Assembly (NCBI GenBank): GCA_964466035.1
Contig: CAYXLR010000002.1
Location: 67,206 to 131,205, forward strand
Source: an uncultured Thermotogae bacterium
GTDB taxonomy: Bacteria > Bipolaricaulota > Bipolaricaulia > UBA7950 > UBA9294
Length of the DNA stretch: 64,000 nt
Direction: 5' to 3'
The notes under the pieces are model-generated. The model saw only the letters and a program-made list of their open reading frames with translations, was not told the DNA's origin and searched no databases. This document shows, one piece after another, positions 940-50,142 of this stretch (positions are counted from its first letter, which is position 1; the number at the start of each line of letters is the position of its first letter). The position numbers and the translations under genes were made by a program.

Positions 940-956
940 GAGGGGTGACCGGTCCA

Positions 957-2034: not shown

Positions 2035-2195
2035 CTGCCTCCCTTCGGCTTGAACTGCAAACGCACTGCCGCCCGAAGATGCTACATCAACAGCCGATCG
2101 GCCGGATCCACCTAAGCGTCGGACCTCTTATGACCCAACACCGGACTGATCGCCTGGCCGCGAATCGACACCTGGAGACCATGCAAGAGAGACTG

Positions 2196-4433: not shown

Positions 4434-5733
4434 CGTTGACGGTTCCCTCTTGTCCGTCCACATCAAACTCCTCGCCAGCAATCGGGTTCCCGCCGGAGTC
4501 GGCATGCACATCCACGCCAGTTAGAATCGTCTGCCACGACACGTCCGGGTTCTGCTCTAGCACAGCGAGAAGATCTACAAAAGCCATGATTGTCGTTCGA
4601 GGCGTTCGGAAGTACGCCTCGCCGATTCGGTTCATGCAATGCCCCATGAATGCCTCGATGACTTCGCTTGTTACAGTGATAGTCTCCTCTCGGCCTGAAG
4701 TGTAGACGTCTCGGACCTTCTCAAGCAGAACGAATAGGTCCTCTGGCGTAAGGCTCTGCAGCCGGATCACGGGACCACTGTGGTCTACCAATCCGTCCAC
4801 CGCGAAAGTGTTCTCCGCAAGGCGCGAACTCAGAGCTTCATGGCTGTACACACCTCTGCGGGGATCTTGCAGGAACTCCAGCGTGCCTGCAGCGAGGAAG
4901 CCAATGCCTCTTGAGATACCCTGTATGCTGTCATTGACGATCCGCAGTAGCTGCTCGTAGTTGCCGCGACGGGCCTGTGCGTTCTGCAGCATATAGATGC
5001 TGACCATCTCGTCCAGACAGACAAGCAGCCCATCGAAGCCTGCAAGCCGGCAGAACCGACCGAGTAGCTTCAGGTGGTCGTAGAACGAGTTATCACTGAC
5101 AATCGTGCGGATGCCGAGCGCCTGCCGCGCTTCGGTTTTCGTAGAGAACTCTCCTCTCAGCCACCGTATCGCATTCGACCTTAACTCATCGTCACCGGCG
5201 TCATAGCCTCGCCAATACGCCGCCACGACCGCCCCGAAGTCATACCCGCCCACGAGTTCGGATAGAGCCGCAACTCGGCTCGCGATAACGGAGTTCACGT
5301 CTGCGGATGTGCTTTCAGCCTCAGCAAGCGCCCCCGCGACGAATCGTTCCACAAGTGCTGGAAGCGCTCCTCCATCTGGGCTGCTGCGTGTCGACATGTT
5401 CCTCATCAGCTCGCTGTAGAGTGCGCGCGCCTGCCCGCCTGTTGAATACAGACGGCGAGCCGAAGACAGGTCGCAGTGAACTGTCACCAGTTTCCTACTA
5501 AGAGCCATCTCACGTACCAGGTTTAGGAAGAAGGTCTTGCCTGAACCGTAATCTCCGATCACGAATCTGATGCCCGAACCACCATCCGCAATCCGCTCGA
5601 TGTCCTTCTTCATCTCGCGGATCTCGTTCTCCCGCGCTACCTGGATGTGCTGGATGCCCGTTCGAGGAACAACTCCTGCCTGAAGAGCTTGCACGATCGC
5701 ATCTCGAACTCGTGGTCTGATACGACTACTCAT
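4408..5733 (-). CDS. sngB: Shango SngB-type ATPase (DUF2791/BrxD-like)
   Basis: Walker A is GDYGSGKTFF and the Walker-B-like segment is LLVCLDEM. The overall layout matches the BREX BrxD/DUF2791 family. The ATG at 5733 overlaps the sngA stop by 8 nt. Confidence 0.85.
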   Translation of the reverse strand: MSSRIRPRVRDAIVQALQAGVVPRTGIQHIQVARENEIREMKKDIERIADGGSGIRFVIGDYGSGKTFFLNLVREMALSRKLVTVHCDLSSARRLYSTGGQARALYSELMRNMSTRSSPDGGALPALVERFVAGALAEAESTSADVNSVIASRVAALSELVGGYDFGAVVAAYWRGYDAGDDELRSNAIRWLRGEFSTKTEARQALGIRTIVSDNSFYDHLKLLGRFCRLAGFDGLLVCLDEMVSIYMLQNAQARRGNYEQLLRIVNDSIQGISRGIGFLAAGTLEFLQDPRRGVYSHEALSSRLAENTFAVDGLVDHSGPVIRLQSLTPEDLFVLLEKVRDVYTSGREETITVTSEVIEAFMGHCMNRIGEAYFRTPRTTIMAFVDLLAVLEQNPDVSWQTILTGVDVHADSGGNPIAGEEFDVDGQEGTVNDGLARFKL

Positions 5734-7981
5734 ACAACCCCCCAACAAGGTCAGCAATGTCTGTCACGACTCGAAGCGGATCTGCCTTCTCAATCAACAC
5801 ATCCTCGAATCTGTCCACGACAGCTTCGTTGATAGCCTCGATAGCTGCGTCGGGGAGCAAGTTGACCTCGCGACACATCTCAGCCCATCGTTCCACAGGA
5901 ATCTGTCCATAGCGAAGAAGCTCCAGGACCAGCCGGCGGTGCGCATCGTCGAAGATCTCGTCGCCTTGGTCTTCCTCATCCTCGTCCACCGTCTCGAGCT
6001 GTGCCTGAGGCTCCTCCTCGTAGAAGACCTCTTCGAGCAGTGTGACGACCGATTCGGACTCTTCTCGTTTCCTCCGAATGCTCTCTTCATCCAGGACAAT
6101 CACGCCACCTTCTGTGGCCGTCTGCGGCGGAAGCTCGTACGATGGGGACGTTTCGCGAGCCTGTCGAACGGTCACTGGCTCCTTCCCCGACGCACCACTC
6201 CCGCCAGCCATGAGTTCGTGAATCTCGGAATGCACGGACTCCGGCGGCAGCTCGAGAACGCTGTACGTCTTCTGCAGTGCCTTGACCTCTTCCTGCGTAA
6301 TGCGGCCGTCAGCTGCAGCCACAAGAAGAAGGTACTTCGCAATCTCCTGTCTCTGCGTCTCACTCAACCCCGACACGGCGCTTCTCAGTGACCGAGCCGC
6401 AGGCGGGCTTCCTAGCAGGATTCGCAGTCGAGCCTCAAGGCGGTTTCTTTCGGCAGCACTCAGGCCAGAGAACCGCCTCGATATCACATCTAGCTCCGCT
6501 GCGTCCACACCATCGGTAGAGCTAACCGTGACGGCGAACGGTAGAGACGCAGCGCAAGCCCTGAATTCGGGTGACAGCTTCGATTCCGGCTTCCACTCTT
6601 GTCTGAAAATGCAGATGGTGCTGGCAAGATCGGGAACCTTGCCGCCATACGCAGGGTCTGGCTCGACTCCAAAGCCAAGCTTCCCAAGCAAGAGAGAAGC
6701 GAGTTCCCACTTCTTTCGAGTCAGTTCTTCTGGACTGACTCCTTCTAGTTCAGACACGAGGTCGCTCGCCGCTGCTTCGCGTAGTGCGTCTTCGGCGAGC
6801 AACTCGTTCAGCCACTCGCGAACTCTCGCCACAACCGCAGAGGAGGTCTCGTCCAGAACCTCCTTTGGCAGAAGTGCCGGCAAGTACTCCGTCAGCGAAG
6901 CAGCTGACTTCCTCCCCAATGCACGGCTGTACTTGTCCAACGCGTTGGTGCATTCCTCCACAATCGCTCGGAGCTTGTCGGTTGGCCTCTTGAGCACCGT
7001 GACATCAGGCAGTTCCGTATGGAGCCGGAATGGTCGGCTTGATATAGCGAGGCTGGCCGCCTGGTACTCAATCCTGAGTGGGGTTTTGCTCGGAGCGACA
7101 ACTATCCCGTCCCCGTGCTTTTTCGAGTAGCGGCTCAGGAAGAGGGACTCGAATTCTTCCCTGCATCTGATTGCCGGTGTTCGGAGGTTGTTGAGCGGTA
7201 TGTTATACGCCCATTGTAGCGCCCACTGTGCAGGAACCGGCTCCCCAGCTGCCGCGAATTGGCCCAGCCCCAGCTTGACCTCAAGAGGTACGTCCCAGCG
7301 GCGGGCGAGGGGAGATTGAAGCTCTACTCTGCTTTCCGTGAGCATCGCTTTGCTACACGCTAGCAACCCGAGGAAGCTACCCGTGTAGCCCTGAAATGAC
7401 CCACTGTCTGGGTAGAGTTCTCTCAGCCGTAGGACCTCGTCTCTGATGAGATCGAGTTCCTCGGTCCATGTGCCACGCGCGATCAGCTCATCGATCGCTC
7501 GCTTCTCCAAACCGTAGAAGAAGATGAATAGGTGGCCTGTATCGACAGCCGGGGTCTTCCTCCCGTCGGCCAGCCACTGCAGGTAGCCCGCCCGATTAGC
7601 CGGCGAAAGCCCCGAGTAGCTCGGCCAGTACCCGATGTCTCCCGTCGTGCCCGGTGGGTGGTCGTCTACTGGTAGCCTGGTGTTGATGAGCGAAGGGTCG
7701 CTCCACTTGCCGGATGCCCCGGGCTTGTGATCAGCTGCGTACACGAAGCCCGCCGTAATCGAATACCCAGCGACTTCGATGAGGTCGCCAGGAAGTAGCC
7801 ATCTAGCGTCGCTGCCTCTTTCCTTCTTAGTTGGCGCCTGAGGATAGCTCGTCCTAACGGTGATTGTGAAGGAGTCGTCGTCGCCACTGCGCCGCGCTCG
7901 CTCCTGCTCCTCGCGCTTCTGAGCGGACTTCCATAGGAAGTAGCCAACAGCAATCACAACGACAACTACCCAGAACCACAT
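5726..7981 (-). CDS. sngA: Shango SngA-type TerB-N/TerB/TerB-C protein with an N-terminal TM helix
   Basis: An N-terminal helix (WFWVVVVVIAVGYFLW) is followed by a TerB-N-like region. A TerB-like segment (EIAKYLLLVAAADGRITQEEVKALQKTY) comes next, then an acidic linker and a TerB-C-like tail (LDEESIRRKREESESVVTLLEEVF...). The gene order A-B-C matches the published Shango system. Confidence 0.85.
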   Translation of the reverse strand: MWFWVVVVVIAVGYFLWKSAQKREEQERARRSGDDDSFTITVRTSYPQAPTKKERGSDARWLLPGDLIEVAGYSITAGFVYAADHKPGASGKWSDPSLINTRLPVDDHPPGTTGDIGYWPSYSGLSPANRAGYLQWLADGRKTPAVDTGHLFIFFYGLEKRAIDELIARGTWTEELDLIRDEVLRLRELYPDSGSFQGYTGSFLGLLACSKAMLTESRVELQSPLARRWDVPLEVKLGLGQFAAAGEPVPAQWALQWAYNIPLNNLRTPAIRCREEFESLFLSRYSKKHGDGIVVAPSKTPLRIEYQAASLAISSRPFRLHTELPDVTVLKRPTDKLRAIVEECTNALDKYSRALGRKSAASLTEYLPALLPKEVLDETSSAVVARVREWLNELLAEDALREAAASDLVSELEGVSPEELTRKKWELASLLLGKLGFGVEPDPAYGGKVPDLASTICIFRQEWKPESKLSPEFRACAASLPFAVTVSSTDGVDAAELDVISRRFSGLSAAERNRLEARLRILLGSPPAARSLRSAVSGLSETQRQEIAKYLLLVAAADGRITQEEVKALQKTYSVLELPPESVHSEIHELMAGGSGASGKEPVTVRQARETSPSYELPPQTATEGGVIVLDEESIRRKREESESVVTLLEEVFYEEEPQAQLETVDEDEEDQGDEIFDDAHRRLVLELLRYGQIPVERWAEMCREVNLLPDAAIEAINEAVVDRFEDVLIEKADPLRVVTDIADLVGGLYE

Positions 7982-7990
7982 ATCGGCACC

Positions 7991-8399
7991 TCAGCCCCGC
8001 TGCTCAGGTTTCTCCTGTTGCTTCAGTAGCAGCTCTCTTGCCTTCGCCAGTCGCTCCGTGAAGCCCTTAGTCTGCACACCATGTCCGTGTTCCTGCCGTG
8101 CGAATCGCTCGAGGATCTCAACTTCGCGAGCGAAGTCCTTCTGCTTGCGGTACAGCTTGGCGGCCTCCATAGTAGTACCATGGAGCGACTGCCCACCTCT
8201 TCTTTCGAGCTTCTGCCTCGACCGCGTCAATCAGCTCTCGCAGCAGTTCTTCGAGTTTAGCTAGGCGCCCCTGCCGCTTCAGGTCTTTGGCTACTTCCAC
8301 ATAATCGGTGTAGTGGCGCCCCCGAACGTAACCAGCTCTCATCCAAGCACCTCCTGCCTGAAGGTGCCTCTTCAGGCCAATCGACCAACTGCTCAGCAT
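7991..8399 (-). pseudogene. Small helical (TPR-like) protein split by a +1 frame break
   Basis: ORF 8118..8399 ends ...RWAVAPWYYYGGRQ. ORF 7991..8230, one frame over, continues MEAAKLYRKQKDFAREVEILERFARQ. Joined, the two read APWYY(Y)-EAAKLYRKQKDF, like a single conserved small protein. The break is at the TACTACTAT run, about 8168-8180. The ATG at 8399 directly abuts the TGA of the upstream gene. Confidence 0.5.
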
Positions 8400-11300
8400 T
8401 CACACTGTATCAGCCAACTCCAAGTAACGACAAAACGAGTTGGCTAGCATCATCTGTCGCGGAGTGCGACACTCAGGCCGGAAGAGCAATGGGCTTGACA
8501 CCAGGATGCACGCACACCGCGCCCTAGACGTCGCGACGTTGATGCGGCTCTGGCTGTACAAGAACTCCATCCCGCGCGGAGCTTCCTCAGGAGATGAAGT
8601 AGCCGTCGAGTAGATCACTATAGGCGCCTCCTGTCCCTGGAACTTATCGACAGTGCCGACTCGTGCTCTTTCCGGTAGTTCCTCCAATAGGTCGGCAACT
8701 TGCGCGTTGTATGGCGCAACGATGAGTATGTCTTCCAGGGAGACTGGGAGCATCTGCCCATCCTTGTCCCGCCACGAGGTTCTACCGTCCACTAGCTCGG
8801 AGACCAAGCGCGCCACTGCACTTACCTCCTCAGGAGAGTCGTTCCGATTCCCTTCGTGAACTACTGGGGAGTACCACAGGCCCGCACCGCGGATCGGGGT
8901 TCCTCCAACCACCTCCTGCCGATGAAGGTTTGCCTGTGAGCGAAGACGGCTCTCGTAGAACATCTCGGATGTGTATCCGCATATGGTGGGATGAAGTCTC
9001 CATGTCGTTTCGAGGAACAGACCTCGATCTGGTGGAAGCGTTGCATGCCCTGCCAGTAAATGCTCGAGCGCGCTGACATCGGTCCCGTCCGGGTGGCTCC
9101 CACGCTTTGGCTGCTCGAGTTGCTGCGGATCGCCTAGTAGTACAACGGATGTCGCTGCTTGTGAAACAGCCAAGACGTTAGCAAGCGACATCTGCCCGGC
9201 TTCATCGACGAAGAGGATGTCGACTGAGCCATCAGCCTCCTCGCGCGCCCATAGCCATGCCGTTCCTGCAGCAACGTCAACCTCACCGCTCGACAGCAGT
9301 GCGAAGACCTTCTCGTTAGACGTAGTCTCAGTGATCCCTTCAGGAGGCTCCTCTTCCGACTTCCGGGTGGCTTTCTGGACGCAGCGGATGCCCCTTCCTG
9401 CTTCGTAGGCTGCCTCGAGAGTGGCGTCCAGCAAGTTACGGATGACCTTGTGGCTGACTGCTGTAATGCCAACCTTCTTCCCAGCTACCACCGCTTCGCA
9501 GATCATCCTCGCACCTATGAACGTCTTGCCGGAACCTGGTGGCCCTTGGATTGGCAACACGCCAGCGTCGAGTTCGTGGACCAGCTTGCGGGCCGCATCA
9601 AGCGCAGTGGGTGCCGCTTCGAGATGTTCGGAAATCGGTCCGCCGCGAAGGCGCGGCGGCAGTCCAAGCAGCAGATCCCGCCCCGCACGATGCTCTCCCG
9701 GTTCATCAACCTGATGCTCTGCCACCCACTCACCGACCCGAAGCAATGCATCTTGGAGCACACTGGTCCTGACGGCATCATGAGTGAAGACCGTCTTGGG
9801 ATGGATATCAGCAATCGATGGCCCCTTCTTGATGTCAACGAGGCGCCGTGCTTGGTCAATGGCAGCTACTTCTCCGAATCCCGAGTTCTCCCCGTCGCCG
9901 CGTCGAAGCCGGTCACCGGGTCGGATCTTGGTTTCTTGGGGCGGGAAACGATACCTGTCAACGAAGCTCTTCTTGATTTGCTCAACACGCTTCACGAACT
10001 CCAGCCCCGCGATGGCCGCTCGTTCATCGAGCAGCTCCTCATCAGTGAGGCCGACGAGCCTGTAGAACTCCCACCAGACCGCCTTCTCCTCTCTGCGATG
10101 CCACTCCAGGAGCTGCGCGAGAGTCCAGACTGCCTGCTGCTCCCTGTCTCGCTCACGCTTATCCACTGGCAGATCCCGGGTTAGCCTCTTGGCCAACTCC
10201 CTTGCGCGAGTGATGACCTCTTCGAGTTCCTCGCTCGGTCTGCCGTCACTGTGTTGAGGTCTGGGGATTCTCTTCCCCTCCTGGACCAGATCCGTTCGCA
10301 GATCCTCCAGCCAGCTACGCAAGCGCAGCGTAGACAAGCAGTCATCTCGGTTGTAGCCCTCAACAGCATCCCGGACTTCCTCGGGGATTGATTCAGCCGC
10401 GCCGAACTCCAGGGCGTACTCCAAGGCTTGCATGTGACGGGCGGCAGCTCTTAAGTCAACAGAGCGATCGAAACCGAAAAACGGCTCAAGGTCCTTGATC
10501 GAGTACGACTCAACACTTGCACGAAGGGATTGACGAACAATGGCGTACAGGTCGACGAATCGCTCTCCACGAAGAAGCCGATCGACTTCATCCTCCCGTG
10601 TCGCGTGACGCCCCATCAGGCGTTTGATTGCCGACGGCTCGTACGGTGCGTAGTGGTAGATGTGGAATCCGCTATCCGCCTCCCATCGCTCAATCGCGTC
10701 ATCCACGAAGCTTTCAAAGGCCTGCTTCTCGGCCGCTGGTGTCAGGCCCCAGAGCGACTCGTACTGCGGCTTCCCGTCGCCATCGAGAGACACAACCCCA
10801 AACAGGTACTCCAGTCCCTCCTCACCAACGAATCGCGCGCCTTCGAAGTCGAAGAAGATGTCAACCGGTGTTGGCTCTGGAAGACGGGACAACCCGAACC
10901 CTTCTTCCGGCTCAAGCATCTCGTGTACAGGTTCACCGCGCTCGCGTCCCGCAAGCTGCACGCGGGCCTGATCGCGGATCTTCGCATAGCCCTCGTGAGA
11001 TCCCCTCGTCGGCCTCGGATCAAGCGGGAGTTCCGCCGAGGCTAGTGCGGCAAGCGTATTGACACCTCTGGCCTGTAGCTCCGCGATCTGCATCTTGCTG
11101 ATGCTGGCAACCAAGGACAGGTGGTCATCAGCATGGCGACGTGTGTCACACTCCTGCCACCAGCGGCAGATGTCGCATTGCTCGCACGGTTCTGGATAAG
11201 TCTCACCACCACTCCAGTCTCCCTTCTTCACTACGGACTGAGCTTGGGCACGCACTAGGCGGTAGTAAGCCATGTAGTTGGCGACTCGATAGCTCTCCGG

Positions 11301-11831
11301 TACGAAGTCGACCCCCGGAGGAACGACGTGCATCTGCTCAGGCAAGCAGCCTTGGATACCCGCAAGGATGTCGGAGTAGAGACAGAGCTGGAGTATGGTG
11401 CGCCCTCGCGTCTCACGCGCCAGTTTCGTGTCGAGTGCTTCGTACGAGTACTCTCCAAGGTTCGGAGAGGGCGTAGCGACTCGTCGAAGGACATCGGCGC
11501 GCCCCATCCAGCCATTGCTGAGTAGGGTTGCCTGGGTAATGACCTCCGTGCCGCGCTTCATCTCCGCGAGCGTTGCGGCAAACTGCGCACGAGTGTCACC
11601 AGTCTCCCGCAGCTCAGCGACTGCGCATCCCTTCTTCTTCAGGTGCCCAATGTAGGCAGCCTCGTGCTCGTAGCCGCGTTGCTGGAGCGCCTCAAGTGCC
11701 GGATCCGAATAGCCAGGGGCCTCGAGATCGCCCCGCGCCACAAGTAGATCGAGGCGAGTCAAGTGCTGACACCCTAGGTGATTCGCAAGATCGCTGGCAG
11801 TTAGCTGAACGGTGTTTTCCGAGACTCGCAT
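8400..11831 (-). CDS. Multidomain RecB/Cas4-like nuclease (TM0106-type), RNase-H-like domain and SF1 (DNA2/Upf1-like) helicase, 1143 aa
   Basis: The N-terminus has PD-(D/E)xK-like motifs (GRADVL, EALDTKL, QLCLYSDIL) and a Cys cluster (CEQCDICRWWQEC). The middle has DnaQ/RNase-H-like motifs (IFFDFEG, HYAPYE, YNRDDC). The C-terminus has SF1 motifs (GPPGSGKTF, DEAGQMS, LLGDPQQL, VDKFQGQE, NVATSRAR). Confidence 0.85.
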   Translation of the reverse strand: MRVSENTVQLTASDLANHLGCQHLTRLDLLVARGDLEAPGYSDPALEALQQRGYEHEAAYIGHLKKKGCAVAELRETGDTRAQFAATLAEMKRGTEVITQATLLSNGWMGRADVLRRVATPSPNLGEYSYEALDTKLARETRGRTILQLCLYSDILAGIQGCLPEQMHVVPPGVDFVPESYRVANYMAYYRLVRAQAQSVVKKGDWSGGETYPEPCEQCDICRWWQECDTRRHADDHLSLVASISKMQIAELQARGVNTLAALASAELPLDPRPTRGSHEGYAKIRDQARVQLAGRERGEPVHEMLEPEEGFGLSRLPEPTPVDIFFDFEGARFVGEEGLEYLFGVVSLDGDGKPQYESLWGLTPAAEKQAFESFVDDAIERWEADSGFHIYHYAPYEPSAIKRLMGRHATREDEVDRLLRGERFVDLYAIVRQSLRASVESYSIKDLEPFFGFDRSVDLRAAARHMQALEYALEFGAAESIPEEVRDAVEGYNRDDCLSTLRLRSWLEDLRTDLVQEGKRIPRPQHSDGRPSEELEEVITRARELAKRLTRDLPVDKRERDREQQAVWTLAQLLEWHRREEKAVWWEFYRLVGLTDEELLDERAAIAGLEFVKRVEQIKKSFVDRYRFPPQETKIRPGDRLRRGDGENSGFGEVAAIDQARRLVDIKKGPSIADIHPKTVFTHDAVRTSVLQDALLRVGEWVAEHQVDEPGEHRAGRDLLLGLPPRLRGGPISEHLEAAPTALDAARKLVHELDAGVLPIQGPPGSGKTFIGARMICEAVVAGKKVGITAVSHKVIRNLLDATLEAAYEAGRGIRCVQKATRKSEEEPPEGITETTSNEKVFALLSSGEVDVAAGTAWLWAREEADGSVDILFVDEAGQMSLANVLAVSQAATSVVLLGDPQQLEQPKRGSHPDGTDVSALEHLLAGHATLPPDRGLFLETTWRLHPTICGYTSEMFYESRLRSQANLHRQEVVGGTPIRGAGLWYSPVVHEGNRNDSPEEVSAVARLVSELVDGRTSWRDKDGQMLPVSLEDILIVAPYNAQVADLLEELPERARVGTVDKFQGQEAPIVIYSTATSSPEEAPRGMEFLYSQSRINVATSRARCACILVSSPLLFRPECRTPRQMMLANSFCRYLELADTV

Positions 11832-11841
11832 GCGTGTCTAT

Positions 11842-11850
11842 ATCATAGCA
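11842..11850 (-). promoter_or_regulatory. Candidate extended -10 promoter (TGcTATGAT) for the defence-gene string
   Basis: The minus strand reads TGCTATGATATAGACACGCATG. The -10 ends 10 nt before the ATG at 11831, implying a nearly leaderless mRNA. No good -35 element was seen. Confidence 0.35.
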
Positions 11851-12019
11851 TGTGATTGTTCCGACCGCATTGGCGAGTTCATGATGCCCCAGACAGCAGG
11901 ACTCGACCGAGTAGCTGTTGCTTCACACAGCAACTGGAGAACGCGGTTATGTGATACGCCGTCCGTGCAAACAGCGTATTCAAGTGCTTGCTCCTCCTCA
12001 GCTGGCTTCTGGATCTGAC

Positions 12020-37757: not shown

Positions 37758-38951
37758 GTGATTGCGATACGTGGCGGCACGGTGTTGACGCCGACGGTGA
37801 CGATCGAGGAAGGGATCGTCCTGATCGACGACGGGAGGATCGTTGACGTCGGGACGGGCGTCGAGGTCCCGACGGACGCGGAGGTCATCGACGCGTCGGG
37901 GCAGGTCGTCATGCCGGGGATGATCGACGCGCACTGCCACACCGGCGTGTTCGGCGACGGCGTCGGTTCGATCCACGCCGACGGGAACGAGATGACCGAC
38001 CCGATCACTCCGCACCTGCGGGCGATCGACGCGATCCATCCCGAGGACCTCGCGTTCAAGGACCTCCGCGAGGCGGGCGTCACCGCGATCAACACCGGGC
38101 CGGGAAGCGGGAACCTGATCGGCGGCCAGACGGCGGCGATCAAGACCGCCGGCCGGACGGTCGACGAGATGCTGGTCGCGTTTCCCGTGGGGATGAAGAT
38201 GGCGCTCGGGGAGAACCCGAAGCGGGTCTACGGCGAGCAGAAGAAGACCCCGTCGACGCGGATGGGGAACGCCGCGACGCTCCGCGAGTGGCTGACCAAG
38301 GCGCAGGGTTACCTCGACAAGGGCGCCCGCCACGCGGAGAAGCTCGCCGACTTTCGGGCCGGCGTCGAGGGGGCGGCCGAGCCGGAGCCGTTCGAGGTCG
38401 ACCTGAAGCTCGAGGCGCTGGCCCGGGTCCTCCGTCGGGAGATCCCGGCGCACATCCACGCCCATCGCGCCGACGATATCATGACGGCGATCCGGATCGC
38501 CGAGGAGTTCGAGCTGGATTTCGTCCTGATTCATGCGACCGAGGGGTACAAGATCGCCGACATCCTGGCGGCGAGGATGATCCCGTGCGTGCCGGGGCCG
38601 ATCCTCTTCTCTCGAAGCAAGGTCGAGCTGCGCGACATGACCCCGAAGAACGCCGGGGTCCTCGCGAACGCGGGCGTCAAGGTGGCGATCCAGACCGATC
38701 AGATGTCGGCCGTTCGGTACCTTCGTCTCGACGCGGCGATCGCCGTCAACGAGGGGATGCGCGACGACGACGCGCTGCGTGCGATCACCCTCACTCCGGC
38801 CGAGATCCTCGGGATCGACGACCGGGTCGGAAGCCTCGAAGCGGGGAAGGACGCCGACGTCGTCATCCTGTCGGCCCATCCGCTCGACGTCGCGCACGGC
38901 CGCGTGCAGCGGGTCCTGATCAACGGGGAGACGGTCTTCTCGAGGGCGTAA
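37758..38951 (+). CDS. Metal-dependent amidohydrolase (imidazolonepropionase-like superfamily)
   Basis: It has the HxH-type motif (MPGMIDAHCH) and a C-terminal GSLEAGKDADVVIL block. Confidence 0.8.
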   Translation: MIAIRGGTVLTPTVTIEEGIVLIDDGRIVDVGTGVEVPTDAEVIDASGQVVMPGMIDAHCHTGVFGDGVGSIHADGNEMTDPITPHLRAIDAIHPEDLAFKDLREAGVTAINTGPGSGNLIGGQTAAIKTAGRTVDEMLVAFPVGMKMALGENPKRVYGEQKKTPSTRMGNAATLREWLTKAQGYLDKGARHAEKLADFRAGVEGAAEPEPFEVDLKLEALARVLRREIPAHIHAHRADDIMTAIRIAEEFELDFVLIHATEGYKIADILAARMIPCVPGPILFSRSKVELRDMTPKNAGVLANAGVKVAIQTDQMSAVRYLRLDAAIAVNEGMRDDDALRAITLTPAEILGIDDRVGSLEAGKDADVVILSAHPLDVAHGRVQRVLINGETVFSRA

Positions 38952-38976
38952 GCGGCGAGGGAGCGGAGGAATTCGG

Positions 38977-39343
38977 GTGAGCGTTGTGATTCTCGACTTC
39001 GGGTCGCCGAACCGAAGTGGTGGCGTTCTGAGGTGACGCTGCAATATCGAAGGGTGCGGTTCAGACTATGAGCGTCGTCATCCTCGACTTCGGTATCGCC
39101 GAACCGAAGTGCTGGCATTCTGAAGAGACGTCGCCATACCGAAGGGCGCGGTACGGATCATGAGCGTCGTGATTCTCGACTTCGGTTCGCTCGAACCGAA
39201 GTGGTGGCCTCGCAGGATGGGTATGAGCGGTGAGAGACAGGGGGACGTCAGGTGAGCGTCGTCATCCTCGACTTCGGTATCGCCGAACCGAAGTGCTGGC
39301 ATTCTGAAGAGACGTCGCCATACCGAAGGGCGCGGCACGGATC
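38977..39343 (+). repeat. Four tandem units of about 92 bp, each mimicking the 5' end of guaA and carrying a hairpin
   Basis: Unit starts are at 38977, 39068, 39160 and 39252, and the real guaA ATG is at 39344. The shared head is [A/G]TGAGCGTYGTSATYCTCGACTTCGG..CGC.GAACCGAAGTG. Units 2 and 4 differ at 2 positions by my alignment. Confidence 0.9.
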
Positions 39344-40858
39344 ATGAGCGTCGTGATTCTCGACTTCGGTTCGCAGTACACCCGCCTCATCGCCCGGCGC
39401 GTTCGCGAGTTGAACGCCCACTCGGTCGTCCTCCCCGGAACGGCCTCCGTCGAACGGATCCGCGAGGAAGCGCCCGCTGCGATCGTCCTCTCCGGCGGGC
39501 CGAAGCTCGTTTTCGAAGACGGCGCCCCGAAGCCGGACGACGCGATGTACGACCTGGGAATACCGATTCTCGGGATCTGCTACGGGATGCATCTGCTGGT
39601 GGAGCGGTTCGGCGGAGCGGTCGTCGATACGGGCGGGCGCTCGTACGGATCGGATCGGCTGGTGCGCGTGGGCGGACCGCTGTTCGACGGCCTGACGGCG
39701 CCTCAGCCGGTCTGGATGAGCCATTCGACCGCCGTCTCCGAGCTTGCTGCCGGCTGGTCGAGCGTCGCGGCGACGGCGACGAATCCGCACGCCGCCGTCG
39801 CTTCGGCCGACGGACGGTTGCACGGCGTGCAGTTTCATCCGGAGGTCGCCCACACGCCGGAAGGCGTCCGGATTCTCGCCAACTTCCTCGATCTCGCGCG
39901 GGTGCCGAGGGATTGGACGCCGGAGCGGAACCTCGAGCGGATCGCCGCGGAGGTGGGAGCGCGCGTCGGGCGGGATCGGGTTCTGCTCGGCGTCTCCGGC
40001 GGCGTCGACTCGTCGACGCTGGCGCTGCTCCTCGCCCGCGAGGGGGTCGATCATCTCGCCGTCTTCGTCGATCACGGCCTCCTGCGCGAGGGGGAGCGCC
40101 GGGAAGTGGACGCCGGGCTTCGCGCCCTCGGGATCAACCTCGTGACGGTCGACGCGTCGGATCGCTTCCTCGGCGCGCTGGCCGGGATCGTCGACCCGGA
40201 GGGGAAGCGGAAGGTCATCGGGCGCGAGTTCGTCGGCGTCTTCCGCGAGGAGGCCGAGCGGCACGGACCGTTCCGGTTTCTCGCCCAGGGAACCCTCTAC
40301 CCGGACGTGATCGAGTCGGCCGGCGGCGAAGGGACGTCGAACATCAAGAGCCACCACAACGTCGGGGGGCTGCCCGAGGAGCTCGGGTTCGAGCTCCTCG
40401 AGCCGTTCCGCGCCCTGTTCAAGGACGAGGTGCGCGAGGTCGCGCGCCTTCTCGGCCTCCCGGACGGGATCCGGCTCCGACATCCGTTTCCCGGCCCCGG
40501 GCTCGCCGTGCGAATCCTCGGCGAGGTGACCCGAGAGCGCGTCGCGATCGTCCGTAAGGCAGACGATGTCTTCGTCTCGGTGCTGAAGGAGCACGGCGCC
40601 TACCACGACGCGTGGCAGGCGCTCGCCGTCCTCACGCCGATCCAGTCGGTCGGCGTCGCCGGTGACGAGCGGCGGTACGGACACGTCGTCGCGCTCCGGG
40701 CCGTCACCAGCCTCGACGCGATGACCGCCGACTGGGCTCGCCTCCCCGCGGAGATCCTCGACGAGGCCGCCCGGCGGATCACCCGCGAGATCCCGGAGGT
40801 CGGGCGCGTCGTCTACGACGTCACGAGCAAGCCGCCGGCGACGATCGAGTGGGAGTGA
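39344..40858 (+). CDS. guaA: GMP synthase (glutamine-hydrolysing)
   Basis: The N-terminus [23 protein letters not shown] belongs to a GATase domain (GICYGMHL). It is followed by the ATP-PPase motif SGGVDSST and the C-terminal tail TIEWE. Confidence 0.95.
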
Positions 40859-42374: not shown

Positions 42375-43673
42375 ATGAGAAGGGTGCCTGTCCAGAGCGT
42401 GCTGGTGGCGGGCCTGAGCGTCGTCGTTCTGGCTTTTGCCGCCTTGGGGCAACTGACCGGGCGCCTGGATCTCGACGCCGTGGCCCGGCGGATTCCTACG
42501 ACCGTTACGGGGGAGATCAAGCTCGACACGCCGAGCGAGTTCACGATGCTCGAGTTCGCGATCGCGTCGAAGCTCGACCTCACGCTGAGAACCGGCTTCA
42601 TCGATCCGCGGGTCAAGGCGGCGATCAACACCGCGGGGATCGAGCACTTCGTCCTGTCGAGTCCGTTCGAGTTCGGGGACCTGCCGCTCTACGGGGCTCG
42701 ACTCGACGAGTTCACCCTCGTGCCGGAGGTCTGGGTCGCGGTTCCGTTCGAGAACGTGACCGACGTCAACAACCTCCCGAACTCCGTGATCATTCCGCCG
42801 GCGAATCCGCTGTTCGTCTCGGCCCGTGCGACGCTCAGCGCGGCGGTCGGGGGATTCGACATCGAGCATCTGATCATGCTGGAGGACGTGAACTTCCCGA
42901 ACCCGAGCGGGTCGTACGATCCGCTCTACTACGAGCACTCCGACCAGGAGTTCGGCATCGGGAGCCTGACGTCGGCGAGCTGGCGCGCGAGCGTCGGGCT
43001 GTCGATGCGGGTGGAGCTCGGCCTGTCGGCCTCGAGTGCCAACAAGAGCATCAAGGGGCACTCCGCGAAGGGGAAGGTCACGCCGGACAGCTCGTTCGTC
43101 CGGCTCGGCATTGGAGGGATCCGGCTCGCGAGCGTCTCGCTCTTCGGCGTCGGCATCCAGGACGTCACACTCGGATCGAGCTTCTCCGTTGCGACCGGCA
43201 CGGACGAGGCGTTCAGCACGACCGTGACGATCGCCGGCGGCGCGTGGGAGGGGACGAGCATCAGCCTGTCGATCACGCTCACGTCGACCCCTCCGACCGT
43301 CAGCGCGCTGATGCTGACGGTCACCGAGGGACCGTTCAGGCTGAGCATCGCGCTGGACGAGCTGGACATCACAGGCCTTTCCGCCAGCTGCGGGAACTCG
43401 CTGAACCTCGGGCCGATCAGCGGGTCCTGGTCGCTCCGCGCGTCGGGGATCGAACGCGGCCTGACCGGATTGGCGATGGGGCTTTCGCTGGCGCAGGGGG
43501 TGTTCTCGACGAACACGTCGATCACGTTCAGCCAGCGGGGAGAAGACTTCGGCTTCGCCAGTTGGTCGAGCAAGTTGAGCTTCCGGTTCAGTCCGGCGGT
43601 GGTGTCGGTCCAGGCGACGTTCGGTCGGTACGGGCTCACCCGAGCCGCGGTCGCGACGAGTGTGTCGTTCTAG
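42375..43673 (+). CDS. Putative outer-membrane beta-barrel protein, 432 aa
   Basis: GGAGGGAG lies upstream of the ATG. It has a signal peptide ([26 protein letters not shown]). Pervasive alternating amphipathic strands are present (e.g. [38 protein letters not shown]). The C-terminus ends ...VATSVSF, a beta-signal-like terminal Phe. No family was recognised. Confidence 0.6.
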
Positions 43674-43677
43674 GGGG

Positions 43678-46600
43678 ATGAAGATGAACCTACGCACCAA
43701 TCAGATGAACGACGGCGTTCGGCACACCGGGAGGGACCGGAAGAGATGCAGGACTTGGTATGTGCTGCTCCTGGTCTGTGGTCTGGTGCTGGGGCTCGGC
43801 CTGGCGCTATCGGCGCAGATCCCTGTCACAGTAGCGATTACGGGCTCTGATACCGAACCCTCCGTGGTCGGTGAAGGGTACTACGTCAGGTTCGAAGTGG
43901 TTCGGGCCGCAGCCAACCCCGACAGCCTTAACCTGTACGGCACGGTGACGGTGAATGACGGCGAAGGGAACACGTGCAGTCGCACGACAACGACTGGAGT
44001 TTTCACTGACGGCTGGTCTTGGGGCTGCACGCTAACTACGTACACGGCAGGCGCAAAAACGATCACCGCAACCTTCACACCGTTGAATCCAGCCGAGTTC
44101 GGCAGCGGCAGCGATACGGAAACCCATGTTGTCAATCGCGCCGACACGACGGTGACCATCACCGGTGACGTGCCGGACCCGTCCGTCGTCAATGAGGCGT
44201 ACGAGGTGAGCGGGACGGTAACGGTCGACGACCCGGGAAGCGGCAGCCCGACCGGCACCGTCGACGTCGACGACGGCGACGGGAACACGTGCTCGGCAGC
44301 GGTTGCGCTCGACGGCAGCTGGAGCTGTGCGCTGACCTCGACGAGCGCGGGCAACAAGACAATCACCGCGGTCTACTCCGGCGACGACAATTTCATCGGG
44401 AGTACGGACACGGAAGATCACGAGGTCACGAAGCGGCTTACGAAGACGGAGGTCTTCTGCTCGGACACGCCGCTGGTGGTGAACGACACGGTGACCTGCA
44501 CCTGCACCGTCAGCGACATCTCCCCGGGAATCCCCTCGGTTCCGACCGGCGACGTGAGCGTCTCCGTGACACCGAATGACGAAGGATCTCCCGCATCCTG
44601 GGGCCATACGTTGGTCGCGGGCGACGGCGGGCAATTCACGTTTACGTACACCCCGGACAGCGCGGAAACCACGCCGCACGTGTTCGCCGCGGCGTACGAC
44701 GGCAGCGCCGTCCACGCAGCCAGCAACGTCGCTGAATGTGTCACCGTCGACTTCGATCAACAGATCATCCGGCGGGCCGTCGACATCGATGTCAGCGTCG
44801 CCCCGATGGCAGCGTACATCAACGAGGTCGTGACGATCGACATCCACGTCGAGGACGATACGACCGCAGGGACACCCGGCGATCTGAACGGGGAAACGGT
44901 CACACTGTCGACATCGAGTGGGACGGGGGTATTCGAGACGGGCGCTCCTGGAGCGGATCATGACGAGACGCTCGACTCGAACGGTGACTGCACCGTGAGC
45001 TACACGCCCGGCGCATTCGAGGCGGGGACCACGACCATCACCGTGACGTTCGCCAGCCCAGACCCCGACCCGCACCCCGTGTTCGCCGAGAAGTCGGTGA
45101 CTGCGCAGATCGATGTGGAACTGCGTCCGACTGAGACCGTACTGGAGAACGCGTGCGGTCCGCTCCTCGTGAACGAGTCCTGCGGATTCACGGTTTCCGT
45201 CGCAGACATCGCCGATGCCGGCACGCCTATCGCCCCGGACGGCGCTGTGGCGATCACGAGGGAGCCGCCGCTTCCCGGAACCGCCACCGGCGTGCCGACC
45301 GTTATCGCCGTTACGGGAGGGGCGACGCCCGGCTTCACGTATACGGCCACTTCGCTCAACGAAGAGGCCGGCCACGAGCTGCTCGTCGCGGTGTATGCAC
45401 CCGACGATGGTATCCACGCACCGAGCAGCGCGGGCTACGCGCAGCCGGTTCAACGACGGCCGACCGAGATTAGCCTCAGTTGCTCACCCACTGCCGACGG
45501 TTGTGACTGCTCCGTGACCGTAGCGGACAAGCCAGGCAACGACCCCGTCGCCAGCCCGCCCGTGGGCGACTTCTACATCTTGGACGATCCGGACGACATC
45601 CTGATCACGTGGGACCCCGCGGAGCCCTTCTTCAAGGTGGCTTCGGACGACATCTACGTCAATGTCGCTGTGAAGTTCGAGGCGAGTGATGCCGTTGGCG
45701 TCCATCTGGACTCGGCGGATGCGGTGGGCGTCGATCGAACGGCCTTCATCGAGGAAGATCCGGGCGACGGCACGACCGGAGCAACGTGCGACGAAGGCTG
45801 CGGCAGCGGAGGCTTCAACATCGATGCGCTTGTCACCGGAATCAACATCGCGGTCGAGACGATATCGTACCTTCAGCTGGGGCTGGACATCGTCGACATC
45901 CCGGTGAGCCTGATTCCGAACCCGGTCTGGTGCGCTGGACTCGGTGTGTGCTCGGGAAGCGAGGTCCCGATCCAGGAGATCATCATGGCGGTCACGGCCA
46001 CTGCGAAGGCCGCGATGGAAGGCATCAAGCTGGAGATGGAGAGGGACTGGGACGGCGACGGTCTCCCGGCGATCGTCGAGGAGCTGCTCGGCACGAGCGA
46101 CCTGTCGACGGACTCCGATGGCGATGGCATGGGCGACGGCGACGAGATCTCCGCAGCGGGCGGATACGCCGGCGGAACGCGCAGACCGTCCCCGATCAAC
46201 GAGGACAGCGACGGCGACACCCTCAAAGACGGCGACGAGGCCGACATCTACAACACCAACTACTGCGTGGCGGACAGCGACTGCGACACGCTGACCGACG
46301 GCCAGGAAGTAGGGACATGGTCCCTTCCGGACATCCGAGACCACGCGAATCCGGGAATGCAGGACACCGATGGTGACGGCCTGCGTGATGACGTCGAGTA
46401 CTACATGAACCACTCCTGCCCGTACGTCAACGACGACGACTCCGACGACGACGGTCTTCAGGACGGGTACGAGGACGCCAATCTGGACGGTTGCTGGGGC
46501 GGCCATACCGGCGACACGCTGCCTTGGACCTGCACCGGCGGGATCACGGTCGGCGGGAGCACGACGCAGGCGTCGAAGACGGTCGACGACTGGGAAACCG

Positions 46601-49600
46601 ATCTGTGCGATCCCGACACCGATGGCGACGGGCTGATGGACGGCGAAGAGGAGGGACTGTTCGGTGCCGGGGAGGTGACCCCTACGGGCGTCTCCGCGAC
46701 AGTCGGGGCCGAAGGTGCGAGTCTCGGTGTGACCGTCCCCGCGCTCGATACCGACATGGACAACGACGGGTTGACGGACTACGAAGAGGTCAACGCGTAC
46801 CAGACCGATCCGACGGACGCGGACACCGACAACGATACCGTCTCCGACGGCGACGAAATCGCGACGTGGGACTCCGCCATCGCTGCGCGACTGGGAACGA
46901 CCGCTTCCTCCGACTCTCGAGACCACGCCAATCCTCGGATGGACGACACCGACGGCGACGGCCTGACCGACGACCTCGAGATGGAGTACGGCTGCAATTG
47001 CGGCCCCGGCGGAGGTGCGTCGCGGGATGGCTACGTCAACGACGACGACTCCGACGACGACGGCCTCCAGGACGGCCCCGATTCGCAGCTTCATCTCGCC
47101 ACGTGGGATCCTTCCGACTACGGCAAGGACGTCGATGCTGCCTCCGGAAACGACGGCGAGCTTCACGACGACAGCACGTGCGCGATCTGCGACGAGGACT
47201 CCGACGGCGACGGGTTGCTCGACGGCGAAGAGGTCCAGGTCGGGACGGACCCGCTCGACTGGGACACCGACGACGACGGCCTGTCGGACCGGGAGGAACT
47301 GCAGACCTACTTCACCGATCCGAACGACCCCGACACCGACGGCGACGGAGCGGCGTTGGAGTACGGTGCCACGTGCACCCTGACCGATCGGCCGACGTCC
47401 GTTCCTCTTGCTGGCTACGCCGGAGCGACCGCATCGACGAGCATCACGGTCTCACGCTACGAGCTCGATGGGAACACACCGACGTACACAGACGAGACGC
47501 AATCGGTCGAGTACTACGACGGGGTCACGCTCGGCTCGGACGGAATCGAGGCCGTCAGCCGTGAAGGAGTCTTCCCGTTCGACGATCTTGGGGATCAGTC
47601 CGACCCGCTGCAGAAGGACACCGACGGAGACGGAATTCAGGACGATGTCGAGTTCAAGCCGGGCTGCAACTGCAGCGGGGAAGGCGTGGAATCCGGACGG
47701 GACGGCTACGTCAACGACGACGACTCCGACGACGACGGGCTGCAGGACGGGGCGGAATACGACCGGTTTGGGTCGGACGACGTCGGCGAAGCCGGTGTCC
47801 TGCCCGTGCTCGGAAACGACGGGGAGCTTCACGACGATCCGGTCTGCTCGCTCTGTGATCCGGATTCCGACGGCGATGGGCTCCTCGACGGCGAAGAGAC
47901 GTTCATCGGGACCGATCCGCTCGACTGGGACTCCGACGACGACGGGCTTTCCGATCGCGAGGAGCTGCAAACCTACTTTACCGATCCGAACGACGACGAC
48001 ACGGACGACGACCAGGCCGATGGGAACGTCGCGGCGCGGGATCCGGACACCGCTCCTCTTCTGGACGGATTCGACGGAACGGAGGCGATCCAAGCGCTCT
48101 CGGACTGCGAAGAGGCGCTCAGCGGGACGGCGCATCCGCCGTTCGGGAACTGGTACGACGAGACCGACCCGCTGCAGCGCGACACCGACGGCGACGGCCT
48201 CGGCGACGCGATCGAGTTCAAGGTCGGCTGTAGCTGCTCGACGACGGGCTGGTGCGACTGCCCCGCGGCCCCTTGGACGTACGCCGATCCGAACTACTAC
48301 GGCGTCGTGTACGACCCGATTCGCGACGGCTACGCCAACAGCTCCGACTCGGACGAAGACGGGCTCCGGGACGGCGAGGACGTTTACGAGGATCTCGCAA
48401 AGGCCGACGTCGACTTCCCCGGGAAGGTGTTCACGATTCGAGGCGAGCACTGCACCGACCTACGCCTGCGCGAGCAGCAGGACGACGGGATCCACTCGAT
48501 CTGCGATCGAGATTCCGACGGGGACGGGCTCCTCGACGGCGAGGAATTCGCGATCGGAACCGACTGGCTCGACTGGGACACCGACGACGACGGACGCAAC
48601 GATTGGCACGAGCACACCGGCGGCGAGCAGGTGACGAGCGCGGACCCCATCCCGACGGACCCGTTCGATCCGGACACTGACGACGACGGGCTCCTGGACT
48701 CGGCCGAGGTGTTCGGATTGAACAACACGAACCCTCTCAATGCCGACACCGACGGCGACGGTCTATGCGACGGGGGAACGGGGACGCCGTACATGATGAC
48801 CTGGCCTACCGATCCGACGGTCCACGTCAACCCGATCTGCAAATCGTGCGCCGAGCCGGGCCTCGACGCTTGTGGAACCATCGTACGAGGAGGAAGCGCC
48901 GACGGGATCGGCGATCACCCGAATCCGCACGGATACGGTGAGGACAAGAACGGAAACGGCGCGTGGGATCCCGGAGGGTACGACTACTGGGGCGACGTGT
49001 ACGCCGGCGACGAGACCGATCCGAACCAGTACGACACCGACGGCGACGCGGACGGAGACGGCGTCGAGGTCCTCGGATTCTCGACGTCGCGCCAGAGCTG
49101 GATTCCGGCCACCGACCTGTTCGGTCGGCCGATCACGGTCACGTATCCAGCGTGCGGCTGCATGAATCCGCTCGATCCCGACACCGACGACGACCAGTTG
49201 GAGGACGGATACGAGGACCGGAACCACGACGGGAACTTCGACTTCCTTCCGAGCGAGTTCGATCACGAGGATCCGCTCCCGGGTCCGCCGATTCCGTATC
49301 CGACCGAGACGAACCCGTGCGATCCCGATACGGACGACGACGGGCTGACCGACTACGAGGAGCGCTACCAGTCGCAGGTCTACGTGCGCTACCCGGACCT
49401 CACCCGCCCGTTCAACCCGACGAATCCGCTCGACCACGACACGGACAACGACTGGATCCTCGACGGGCCGGAGGTGTTCTGGGAGTGCGTCGAGCTGGCG
49501 TACTGGACGCTCGACAACGACACCGACGGCCTGACCGACGAGGACCCGATCGACGGGATCGACAACGACGGAGACGGCTTGATCGACGAGGATCCGCAGG

Positions 49601-50142
49601 ACTACTGGATCCGGTTCGTCCCGATGCTCGACCCGACCAACCGCGACTCCGACTCGGACGGGTTCATCGACGGCCTCGACGACGATCCGTGCAACTCGGA
49701 GCTGATTCCGCTCCTGGCGCCGGTTCAGGCCGAGCCGATCGACACCGACGGCGACGGCTTCTCCGACGACGACGAGCTGCTTGCGGGCACCCATCCGAAC
49801 GACCCGGAGGATCATCCGATCCCGTATGTCGGGATGAACCTCGACCTCGACGACTGCTTCGACGACCGTCTGTGGCTCGAACCGACGATGTGCTGCGGAA
49901 TCGCCAACTCGGTGGTCATCGACCTCGACAGCAACGTCCTCGTCGACGTCCGGGTGCAGATCGTGCAGCCCCGCGACGTGCGGGTTGGCGACTACGACGA
50001 GGACGGACACGAGGACGACGCCCGCTACGTCGTCGAGTACGCGTTCGCGCTGTATCGCGTCGTCCAGCGACGGATCGTCGCGACGATCGACGACTTCGAC
50101 ATGGATCTCGTGATCGACGCGGTGAGACTCGACCCGAGATAG
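43678..50142 (+). CDS. Giant secreted/surface protein with N-terminal Ig-like repeats and dozens of thrombospondin-type-3-like Ca-binding repeats, 2154 aa
   Basis: It has a signal/anchor ([21 protein letters not shown]). Repeated Big_3-like modules are present (..TVTITGD..DPSVV..GTV.V.DG.GNTC......W.C.LT...AG.KTITA.Y.GD..F..S). From about residue 800, DxDxDG-type repeats are reiterated (DTDGDGLxDxxE, [10 protein letters not shown]). The start could be 43660. Confidence 0.85.
46360..48640 (+). repeat. Four in-frame modules of about 0.56-0.68 kb inside the giant gene
   Basis: Module heads are at about 46360, 46945, 47617 and 48181 (D.TDGDGL.DD.E....C.C....[18 protein letters not shown]). Each is followed by [24 protein letters not shown]...[28 protein letters not shown]. 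Confidence 0.75.

Follow-up and report, generated by a model that had tools for sequence, protein, structure and literature searches.

A variable tandem array of partial guaA copies at the GMP synthase gene of a Bipolaricaulota-like bacterium and its possible role as a relay of coupled small reading frames

Why should the first codons of a gene be repeated, unit after unit, directly in front of the gene itself? The question is raised by guaA, which encodes a GMP synthase of 504 aa (39344..40858, plus strand; ORF listing, ORF standing for open reading frame) in a 64-kb stretch of contig CAYXLR010000002.1, the whole of which is referred to here as the window. The organism is Bipolaricaulota/Acetothermia-like (Candidatus), as judged by its GuaA homologues. 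Between the upstream amidohydrolase gene, whose TAA stop occupies 38949-38951, and the guaA ATG at 39344, four units of 91-92 nt lie at 38977-39343. Tandem Repeats Finder detected one array (38978-39374, period 92, 4.3 copies, score 431), which is the sole sizeable tandem repeat within the window. Each unit opens with a head that repeats the guaA start codon and codons 2-9/10 (27-31 nt, copied from 39344-39374) and continues with 61-65 nt of non-guaA sequence, itself opening with an 11-nt inverted copy of guaA codons 6-10, termed here the anti-head. The head pattern GAGCGTCGTSATYCTCGACTTCGG (24 nt) occurs five times, in the four units and in guaA, against zero expected in shuffles, and the anti-head CGAACCGAAGTG is present once per unit and nowhere else in the window. 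Our answer, to which we assign a probability of roughly 0.6, is that this is a lineage-specific tandem array of partial guaA 5' duplicates, variable in copy number, which would work as a relay of translationally coupled mini-ORFs.

The array is entered through a short spacer (named U, 38952..38976, plus strand), which carries the only strong Shine-Dalgarno sequence of the leader, GGAGG at 38965-38969, 7 nt 5' of the GTG of unit 1. Unit 1 (38977..39067, plus strand) is a decayed A-type unit of 91 nt, with an ORF of 19 codons that stops at TGA 39034-39036. The following three units, all on the plus strand, measure 92 nt each and each bears an upstream ORF (uORF) of exactly 31 codons. Specifically, unit 2 (39068..39159, A-type) has its uORF at 39068-39163, with a TGA overlapping the ATG of unit 3; unit 3 (39160..39251, B-type) has its uORF at 39160-39255, with a TGA overlapping the GTG of unit 4; and unit 4 (39252..39343, A-type) has its uORF at 39252-39347, with a TGA overlapping the ATG of guaA. 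The three stop/start overlaps (39160-39163, 39252-39255 and 39344-39347) lie on the same strand and are all of the xTGA form. The head of unit 3 is identical to guaA over 31/31 nt, and its B-type tail includes a Shine-Dalgarno-like run, GGGGGA. Directly 5' of guaA the sequence reads ...GGCACGGATC, an A-type tail without a good Shine-Dalgarno. The initial annotation of this DNA, made from the sequence alone, had described this layout, with its three 31-codon ORFs and ATGA, GTGA and ATGA overlaps, a diverged first unit of 19 codons, two differing positions between units 2 and 4 and a second ACCGAAG copy in both of these; Tandem Repeats Finder, the pattern counts and the ORF listing place every one of these features where it had been reported.

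The units also contain inverted repeats. A head/anti-head hairpin is listed at 39087..39110 of unit 2, plus strand (ACTTCGGT ... ACCGAAGT), with equivalents at 38996-39018, 39179-39202 and 39271-39294 in the other units, and the guaA segment at 39363-39373 (plus strand, ACTTCGGTTCG) is the perfect complement of the anti-head of every unit. The second ACCGAAG copy belongs to a second anti-head, AH2 (GCCATACCGAAG), found in A-type units at 39133..39144 (unit 2) and 39317-39328 (unit 4) of the plus strand, which pairs at 11/12 positions with the head of its own unit (CTTCGGTATCGC). It overlaps a 31-nt A-type core, TGGCATTCTGAAGAGACGTCGCCATACCGAA, at 39113..39143, with a second copy at 39297-39327, again on the plus strand.

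Since an assembly artefact had been raised as a question for such a repeat, independent contigs are relevant here. Five more JGI contigs (L001-L005), each from another sample set than the window, encode the same 504-aa GuaA. Two of them (L004, L005) carry the same four units as the window, one (L002) has units 1 and 2 only, with a 208-nt spacer, and two (L001, L003) start inside the array. With the array recurring on separate contigs of other samples, it is no assembly artefact; it is reproducible and probably polymorphic. L001 (positions 1-100) opens with the last part of a B-type tail, behind which a unit-4-type head is joined to a unit-3 body as a chimeric unit; this is either another arrangement of the array (B-B) in that sample or the tip of an assembly graph. 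Additionally, the contigs L001, L003, L099, L102, L104 and L105 start 33-189 nt 5' of guaA or are 1.6-1.9 kb long; all of these except the unit-less L099 have their first base within a unit or its tail. In practice, short-read assemblies of these organisms seem to be fragmented at guaA by the repeat (at least five contigs).

Is the array an accident of a single genome? Upstream regions of guaA were compared among ten lineages with 82-90% GuaA identity and three outgroups, and 8/10 of the former have one to five units at the same place. In these eight lineages and in the window the units, 55-93 nt long, directly adjoin the start of guaA. The longest array is that of L091 (87%), with five 92-nt units in the order A,B,B,B,B, all of them 31-codon ORFs with ATGA/GTGA overlaps, in front of a guaA that starts with GTG. 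The contigs of L105 (89%) and L104 (90%) begin inside an A unit and inside a B tail, respectively, each directly 5' of guaA. A single 92-nt unit of 31 codons with an ATGA overlap is present in both L103 and L109 (83%), with tails (types C and D) that are unrelated to A, to B and to one another. In L101 (82%) there are two identical 59-nt units of 20 codons with a GTGA overlap. Finally, L106-108 (93 nt) and L114/115 (82 and 55 nt) have decayed units whose ORFs stop early. On a neighbour-joining tree of GuaA, built without bootstrap, the unit-less lineages L099 and L100 are nested among unit-bearing ones, which makes the unit an ancestral feature of the clade, with two later losses. Farther away, no head mimic was found upstream of guaA at any of 80 GTDB guaA loci (at most 67% identical). 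The initial annotation had considered that a lack of conserved uORF length and overlap in orthologous genomes would speak against a real device; the architecture is in fact kept in several genomes.

What stood in this place before the units is visible in the outgroups. In L110-113 (78%), L116 (73%) and L006 (67%) the gene order is AKR-xpt-guaA, AKR being an aldo/keto reductase gene, and the xpt stop overlaps the guaA start as ATGA or GTGA (xpt at L110:914-1504, L116:920-1504 and L006:2381-2989). The encoded phosphoribosyltransferase has 194-196 aa, and its homologues are annotated as xanthine phosphoribosyltransferases of Bipolaricaulota/Acetothermia. Joined by this overlap in one operon, the two genes are apparently a translationally coupled salvage pair (xanthine to xanthosine monophosphate to GMP). 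A tblastn search detected no xpt in the window, and throughout the in-group xpt is gone from the slot, where the units sit with the same overlap. Units have replaced xpt in the slot, and the overlap of xpt and guaA in the outgroups makes the stop/start overlap at guaA older than the array.

The units themselves may descend from this junction. In a first step, a tandem duplication of ~92 bp would have covered the last ~22 xpt codons up to guaA codon 9/10, with its joint at a shared TCG(C), fusing guaA codons 1-9/10 to the xpt tail as a chimeric mini-ORF; since 92 = 2 mod 3, the xpt tail would be kept in xpt's own frame up to xpt's own overlapping stop. In a second step xpt would have been deleted, the units persisting afterwards. 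The L110 xpt segment TCGCTCGATCCGGAGACGGGC (Q-SLDPETG) agrees with the L103 unit segment TCGCTCGAACCGAAGTGCGGC (G-SLEPKCG) at 16/21 positions in the same frame, 59 nt before the start in L110 xpt and 65 nt before it in the L103 unit. This site is the top plus-strand local match for window unit 3 as well as for the L103 unit over the 4.5-kb L110 locus, and end-anchored alignments of the tails to L110 gave uncorrected z values of 3.5 (C), 2.3 (B) and 1.8-1.9 (A). Several results argue against such an origin. Local alignment scores equal to that of the 16/21 site arise elsewhere by chance, which is noise level; with a profile of 120 Xpt C-termini the uORF tails scored no better than decoys; the tails show none of the third-position GC bias of a coding sequence; the protein collections contained no Xpt with a uORF-like tail and no annotated uORF peptide, a concatenate of five uORFs having no match at E <= 10 in a set of 5.8 billion proteins and the A-type uORF 0 matches among 1.84 billion representative proteins; and none of the loci compared has an xpt-unit-guaA intermediate. 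A single short in-frame match carries the xpt-tail origin. A loss of the signal is to be expected, as four-fold sites are saturated between the in-group and L110 (36-39% identity). We consider it about an even bet that the units arose as chimeric partial duplicates spanning the former junction of xpt and guaA.

Once present, the units have been reshuffled repeatedly. The segments 39069-39190 and 39253-39374 (unit 2 plus the head of unit 3, and unit 4 plus the head of guaA) are 99% identical, pointing to a recent higher-order duplication of 184 bp. Heads carry the synonymous variants of their own genome, such as CTT in L101, GTT...GATCCT in L103 and GTT GTC ATC in L091; together with the 31/31 identity of the unit 3 head, this agreement with the resident guaA indicates ongoing unequal crossover or gene conversion between units and guaA. 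Through unequal homologous recombination between heads the units have been expanded, contracted and mixed. Hairpin-driven slippage had been one of the initially proposed readings, and it is half right: the array clearly grows and shrinks, the route being recombination between heads, in which the hairpin might have a part. The flank of the array is also unstable. AKR lies between the amidohydrolase gene and guaA in L100, L101, L103 and L109 and is present as a partial copy in L091; it is missing from the window, L106-108 and L114/115, so deletions beside the array recur. In the window, the deletion that took AKR would have begun where the amidohydrolase gene ends, its right-hand breakpoint apparently falling inside a B-type tail. 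Unit 3 shares homology in its 3' half with the spacer that precedes unit 1, a relation that, like the 184-bp duplication, the initial annotation had missed: a direct repeat of 59 nt (38944-39002 / 39219-39277) is 76% identical, spacer U matches a B-tail 19-mer with three mismatches, and the spacer 5' of unit 1, starting right after the amidohydrolase stop, resembles the B-type tail of L104 at ~78% and could also be aligned with the B tails of L091 and unit 3. Spacer U is probably what the loss of AKR left of a B-type unit. As a separate observation, AKR of L091 ends at a TGA seven codons early (4100-4140, minus strand; …AYK* versus …AYKGSEEKYK* in relatives), a small C-terminal truncation just 5' of the array.

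Does anything hold the chain of reading frames in place, or is it a product of arithmetic? The 31 codons and the overlap follow from a period of 92 (2 mod 3), a head beginning xTGAGC and a lack of in-frame stops. In the initial annotation, constraint had been deduced from unit 3, which keeps length and overlap with an unrelated 3' half; this argument is weak, the overlap being arithmetical and B-type tails diverging at the neutral rate (32-37/48 positions matching). Shuffled versions of the non-head part are open ~45% of the time. However, the tail types A, B, C and D are mutually unalignable and yet all exactly 92 nt and open, where chance openness is ~0.45 per type and ~0.035 jointly for four; the spacer between guaA and the following PLD gene, taken as a neutral comparison, varies from 109 to 120 nt in the same genomes; and the one intact length variant (L101, 59 nt) equals 92 - 33, in frame. 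Taken together, these points suggest that selection acts on frame and overlap and not on the peptide. The A-type tail is conserved in its own right, with 45/48 matches between the window and L091 (identity at guaA four-fold sites 0.75) and 47/48 between the window and L105 (four-fold sites 0.82), an excess over four-fold sites with a binomial p of ~1e-3 in each case, and the 31-nt core is invariant among the window genome, L091 and L105.

These numbers bear on the view that the array is neutral repeat junk, i.e., a tolerated, hairpin-prone tandem duplication with untranslated mini-ORFs of no role, in front of a guaA that initiates independently. The arithmetical nature of the chain, tails without a coding signature, the neutral B tails, a variable copy number, and units that are decayed in L106 and L114 and lost in L099 and L100 would all agree with it. 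The strand opposite guaA in L091 (3710-3897) carries a similar chain, in which 31-codon ORFs follow one another with ATGA overlaps. GTCATCC, read in reverse complement, creates these overlaps; the antisense chain is a by-product of arithmetic with a 92-nt period and a caution against seeing design in such chains. Neutrality does not easily account, however, for a 92-nt length and an open frame in four unalignable tail types beside a spacer that changes length, for the conserved A tail, for the guaA of the window and of L105, which has no recognisable Shine-Dalgarno of its own behind the A tail, or for lineages with an early uORF stop that gained GGAG before guaA. We regard pure junk as rather improbable.

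How, then, might the relay operate? Ribosomes would load at the GGAGG before unit 1, or at the GGGGGA of the B tail for the start of unit 4, and would be passed on at each -4 overlap by termination-reinitiation, by unfolding of local structure, or by both. Both routes of translational coupling, through RNA unfolding or through reinitiation, and the delivery of ribosomes by a short ORF have been described (PMC12548453). Because the A tail before guaA lacks a good Shine-Dalgarno, guaA would be fed mainly by coupling from uORF 4. In A-type units the head could pair with AH2 and free the anti-head for guaA codons 6-10 unless the uORF is translated; pairing of the anti-head with these codons would reinforce the dependence of guaA on coupling. 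The best reading is that the units are tolerated or kept since the chain of -4 overlaps may still deliver ribosomes to guaA. Of the initial readings, the one of a leader of several coupled uORFs fits best, the overlap recurring in relatives and mirroring xpt-guaA; its other half, purine attenuation, is without support, with no Rfam match, no terminator, no regulatory codons and folding z values near zero.

Several results weigh against a coupled relay. The two-unit allele of L002 could be an assembly collapse of the 184-bp repeat, L099 and L100 live without any unit, and in L106 and L114 the overlap is lost and a GGAG Shine-Dalgarno stands directly before guaA instead; by comparison of these genomes, the device is dispensable. 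The tails show no coding-type bias in third-position GC (GC3; 0.60/0.60/0.63 versus 0.76/0.47/0.89 in guaA). Translation of the uORFs and their coupling are themselves predictions from sequence. In folding energy, neither single units nor the last unit with guaA nor the leader as a whole surpass dinucleotide shuffles (z -0.6 to +0.9), and helix counts do not rise above shuffle controls (72-103 of 500).

The last two results concern equally a dedicated regulatory leader, in which decoy heads and anti-heads would make a rheostat or sensor of ribosome flux or of a purine/GTP signal, copy number tuning the output. Structural arguments for it can be listed, of which the kept helices, the predicted fold and the conservation of the A-type tail speak for the coupled relay as well. 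An 8-bp head:anti-head helix can form in 14/14 distinct units from eight genomes, with one double change (L114 unit 1, U-A to C-G), five G.U-compatible single changes, which are most of the singles, and three unpaired cells. The head:AH2 helix is available in 5/5 A-type units, with one compensatory change from C-G to U-A (the A unit of L091) and two G.U changes (decayed unit 1). In all genomes with units, guaA codons 6-10 are the perfect complement of the anti-head CGAACCGAAGT, and the unit-less L099 and L100 use other, synonymous codons there. In the minimum free energy fold of the last unit with guaA (window and L105), the anti-head is paired with the guaA head and the AUG is enclosed. Finally, the unit is retained across the clade, and the conservation of the A-type tail, including AH2, goes well beyond neutral, with its core invariant in three species. 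The alternative pairings (head:anti-head, head:AH2 and anti-head:guaA-head) are thus all present, without a thermodynamic or statistical excess over controls, and a search for RNA duplexes between the upstream region and the guaA start reached p = 0.05-0.08 at best.

Searches for known signals offered no help to such a leader. At the gathering score Rfam had no match in the whole window, and the leader produced only noise (E = 7.7-9.3); purine, PRPP, ppGpp and 2'-dG riboswitches, ribozymes and CRISPR repeats were likewise without an Rfam match in the window. Neither promoter-like nor terminator-like sites were found in 38500-39600, and neither regulatory codons nor a ligand-binding fold are evident in the leader. 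The B, C and D tails are unrelated, B is evolving neutrally, and the device was lost twice without replacement. The evidence from helices and conservation for RNA structure or purine sensing is suggestive only, and a dedicated regulatory leader seems to us unlikely. Its most elaborate form, a purpose-built translational rheostat in which decoy starts compete with the genuine one for cis anti-heads and reinitiation in series over the uORFs, their number varied by recombination, sets the output of GMP synthase, is more doubtful still; if true, a core purine enzyme of an uncultivated phylum would be governed by a locus of the contingency type, which might respond to ribosome or GTP supply. Two further points concern the same RNA. 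A hammerhead-like CUGAAGA...GAA in the A tail was rejected, as by eye no stem II is possible and Rfam gave no match. The arms of the hairpins (39087-39110 and equivalents) are built of TTCG/CGAA repeats (ACTTCGGTTCG / CGAACCGAAGT); the PurR boxes (PurBoxes) of B. subtilis have a central CGAA/TTCG motif (PMC8789054), and the arms are alike in this respect, but spacing and AT-rich context differ, leaving a resemblance only.

Returning to the coupled relay as the preferred reading, we can ask whether its units are mobile or occur elsewhere. A scan of 241 million metagenome records with the pattern GACTTCGG-N3-9-CGAACCGAAGTG, which includes the head arm, returned 13 contigs, of which 12 were unrelated coding hairpins and one (L091) was the related guaA leader with five units. 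Unit tails were not found elsewhere in 780 kb of fetched DNA. Dispersal at many unrelated loci, which the initial annotation had named as the mark of a generic miniature transposable or palindromic repeat (MITE/REP), is not seen: the window, the 780 kb and the hairpin scan hold no other copies, and a REP/MITE dispersed repeat is ruled out for the loci searched.

A more specific form of mobility would be a miniature repeat that inserts at start codons together with its own coupled ORF, guaA being one of several sites. This is the behaviour of the MIRUs (mycobacterial interspersed repetitive units), which are placed at start codons and contain an ORF coupled at a spacing of -4, so that their insertion hardly disturbs expression (PMC12548453). 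The architecture of the guaA units matches theirs, and 64 kb of the genome were examined. However, each unit begins with 27-31 nt that are the conserved N-terminal codons of guaA itself, which all Bipolaricaulota GuaA have, those of unit-less genomes too; the heads track the synonymous variants of each genome, no tail occurs elsewhere in the fetched DNA, and the only unit array returned by the hairpin scan was at guaA. A mobile repeat of this kind is very improbable.

The initial annotation had also proposed att-like scars of serial integration and excision at the guaA 5' end, to which off-target insertion of CRISPR-type spacers may be added. The repeated heads, which resemble a long target duplication, and the palindrome at the junction would suit such events. 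Against them, the 19 large ORFs scanned, of which the flanking ones lie within ~12 kb of the array on either side, include no integrase, transposase or cas gene; 0/12 related loci have an element inserted between head copies, with at most 93 nt between heads; unit lengths of 55, 59, 82, 92 and 93 nt are unlike those of a molecular ruler; and the slot was formerly that of xpt. Scars of this origin are scarcely credible. A CRISPR or neo-CRISPR array was rejected as well: the 'spacers' of units 2 and 4 are the same, both of those in L101 are identical, lengths range between 55 and 93 nt, what is repeated is the start of guaA itself, a CRISPR-DR match in Rfam was noise and lay outside the array, and no cas domain occurs in the large ORFs scanned, which cover part of the window. 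Separately, L109 has an IS1595-family transposase gene (6003-6380) ~2.1 kb 3' of guaA, and none such is near the window array.

In a Pfam scan of large ORFs the array is flanked by housekeeping genes: on the upstream side an ABC/FtsX-MacB transporter, a LolA-like protein, FmdA and the amidohydrolase (37758..38951, plus strand; Pfam Amidohydro_1/3, supported by synteny), downstream a PLD/LTD protein, a 2160-aa Big_3_5/TSP3 protein and a NiFe hydrogenase. The 2160-aa ORF (43660-50142, 3' of guaA), whose L001/L003 counterpart has Big_3_5 and TSP3_bac repeats, is predicted to encode a giant surface or adhesin-like protein. At the other end of the window, positions 1-12000 have a GC content of 0.58-0.59 versus 0.62-0.71 for the remainder, and their minus strand encodes a DEAD/Helicase_C protein (2196-4511), a TerB_N+TerB+TerB_C protein (5726-7981) and an RNase_H_2 + SF1-helicase protein (8400-11831). 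This region looks like a horizontally acquired island of the conflict or defence type.

If the relay is correctly understood, an operon may lose a gene without stranding its coupled neighbour, as a chimeric stump with a copy of the neighbour's start appears to continue the hand-off, and such a stump can afterwards amplify into a variable array. Serial uORF relays would also be a tractable design for translation tuning. Our literature search returned nothing specific on a guaA/xpt leader or on Bipolaricaulota repeats, and the array is best set against better-known systems. Attenuators of the trp/pyrBI type combine a short leader ORF with mutually exclusive pairings, for which the array has a leader ORF and candidate pairings (head:anti-head, head:AH2 and anti-head:guaA-head), but it has no terminator hairpin with a U-run, no run of regulatory codons and no conserved leader peptide beyond the guaA mimic, and its unit is repeated. 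For comEB-comEC, the upstream ORF is reported to need translation although its product is dispensable (bioRxiv 10.1101/2020.12.30.424838). As in that case and in uORFs that deliver ribosomes, translation would matter over product in the array, with its tails devoid of a coding signature; the cases of the comEB-comEC type are single ORFs and not self-mimicking tandem repeats of the downstream start.

Closer still are xTGA (-4) coupled gene pairs, among them the outgroup xpt-guaA, which has the same stop/start configuration at the guaA start and in which guaA would likewise need translation of the ORF before it. An inhibitory RNA structure opened by the upstream ribosome may be a further shared trait (PMC12548453). 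They differ in that the upstream partner here is a tandem 31-codon chimera and not a gene, and in that the coupling steps would act in series. Finally, the MIRUs known from MIRU-VNTR (variable number tandem repeat) loci are likewise short units (tens to ~100 bp) in variable tandem copy number, exactly at a gene start, and likewise have a small ORF per unit whose stop overlaps the next start at -4, the coupling being in our case predicted from the reading frames. In M. tuberculosis there is roughly one MIRU locus per 100 kb. MIRUs are dispersed and thought mobile, whereas the guaA units were found only at guaA, no complete genome being part of this comparison; their 5' third copies the guaA start, they contain the anti-head inverted repeat, and they occupy the slot of a lost xpt. 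MIRUs belong to Actinomycetota and the guaA units to Bipolaricaulota-like organisms. The array would work like a MIRU array but probably does not belong to the same family, its units being confined to guaA in the DNA searched. Should this be confirmed, the array would represent a second instance, of independent evolution, of the principle by which start-codon repeats are rendered harmless through a -4-coupled ORF, and a non-mobile one, in a deep-branching candidate phylum. Its logic appears to be that of known -4 coupling and MIRU-like repeats and not of a new kind of system, in a structure that is genuinely odd and evolutionarily informative.

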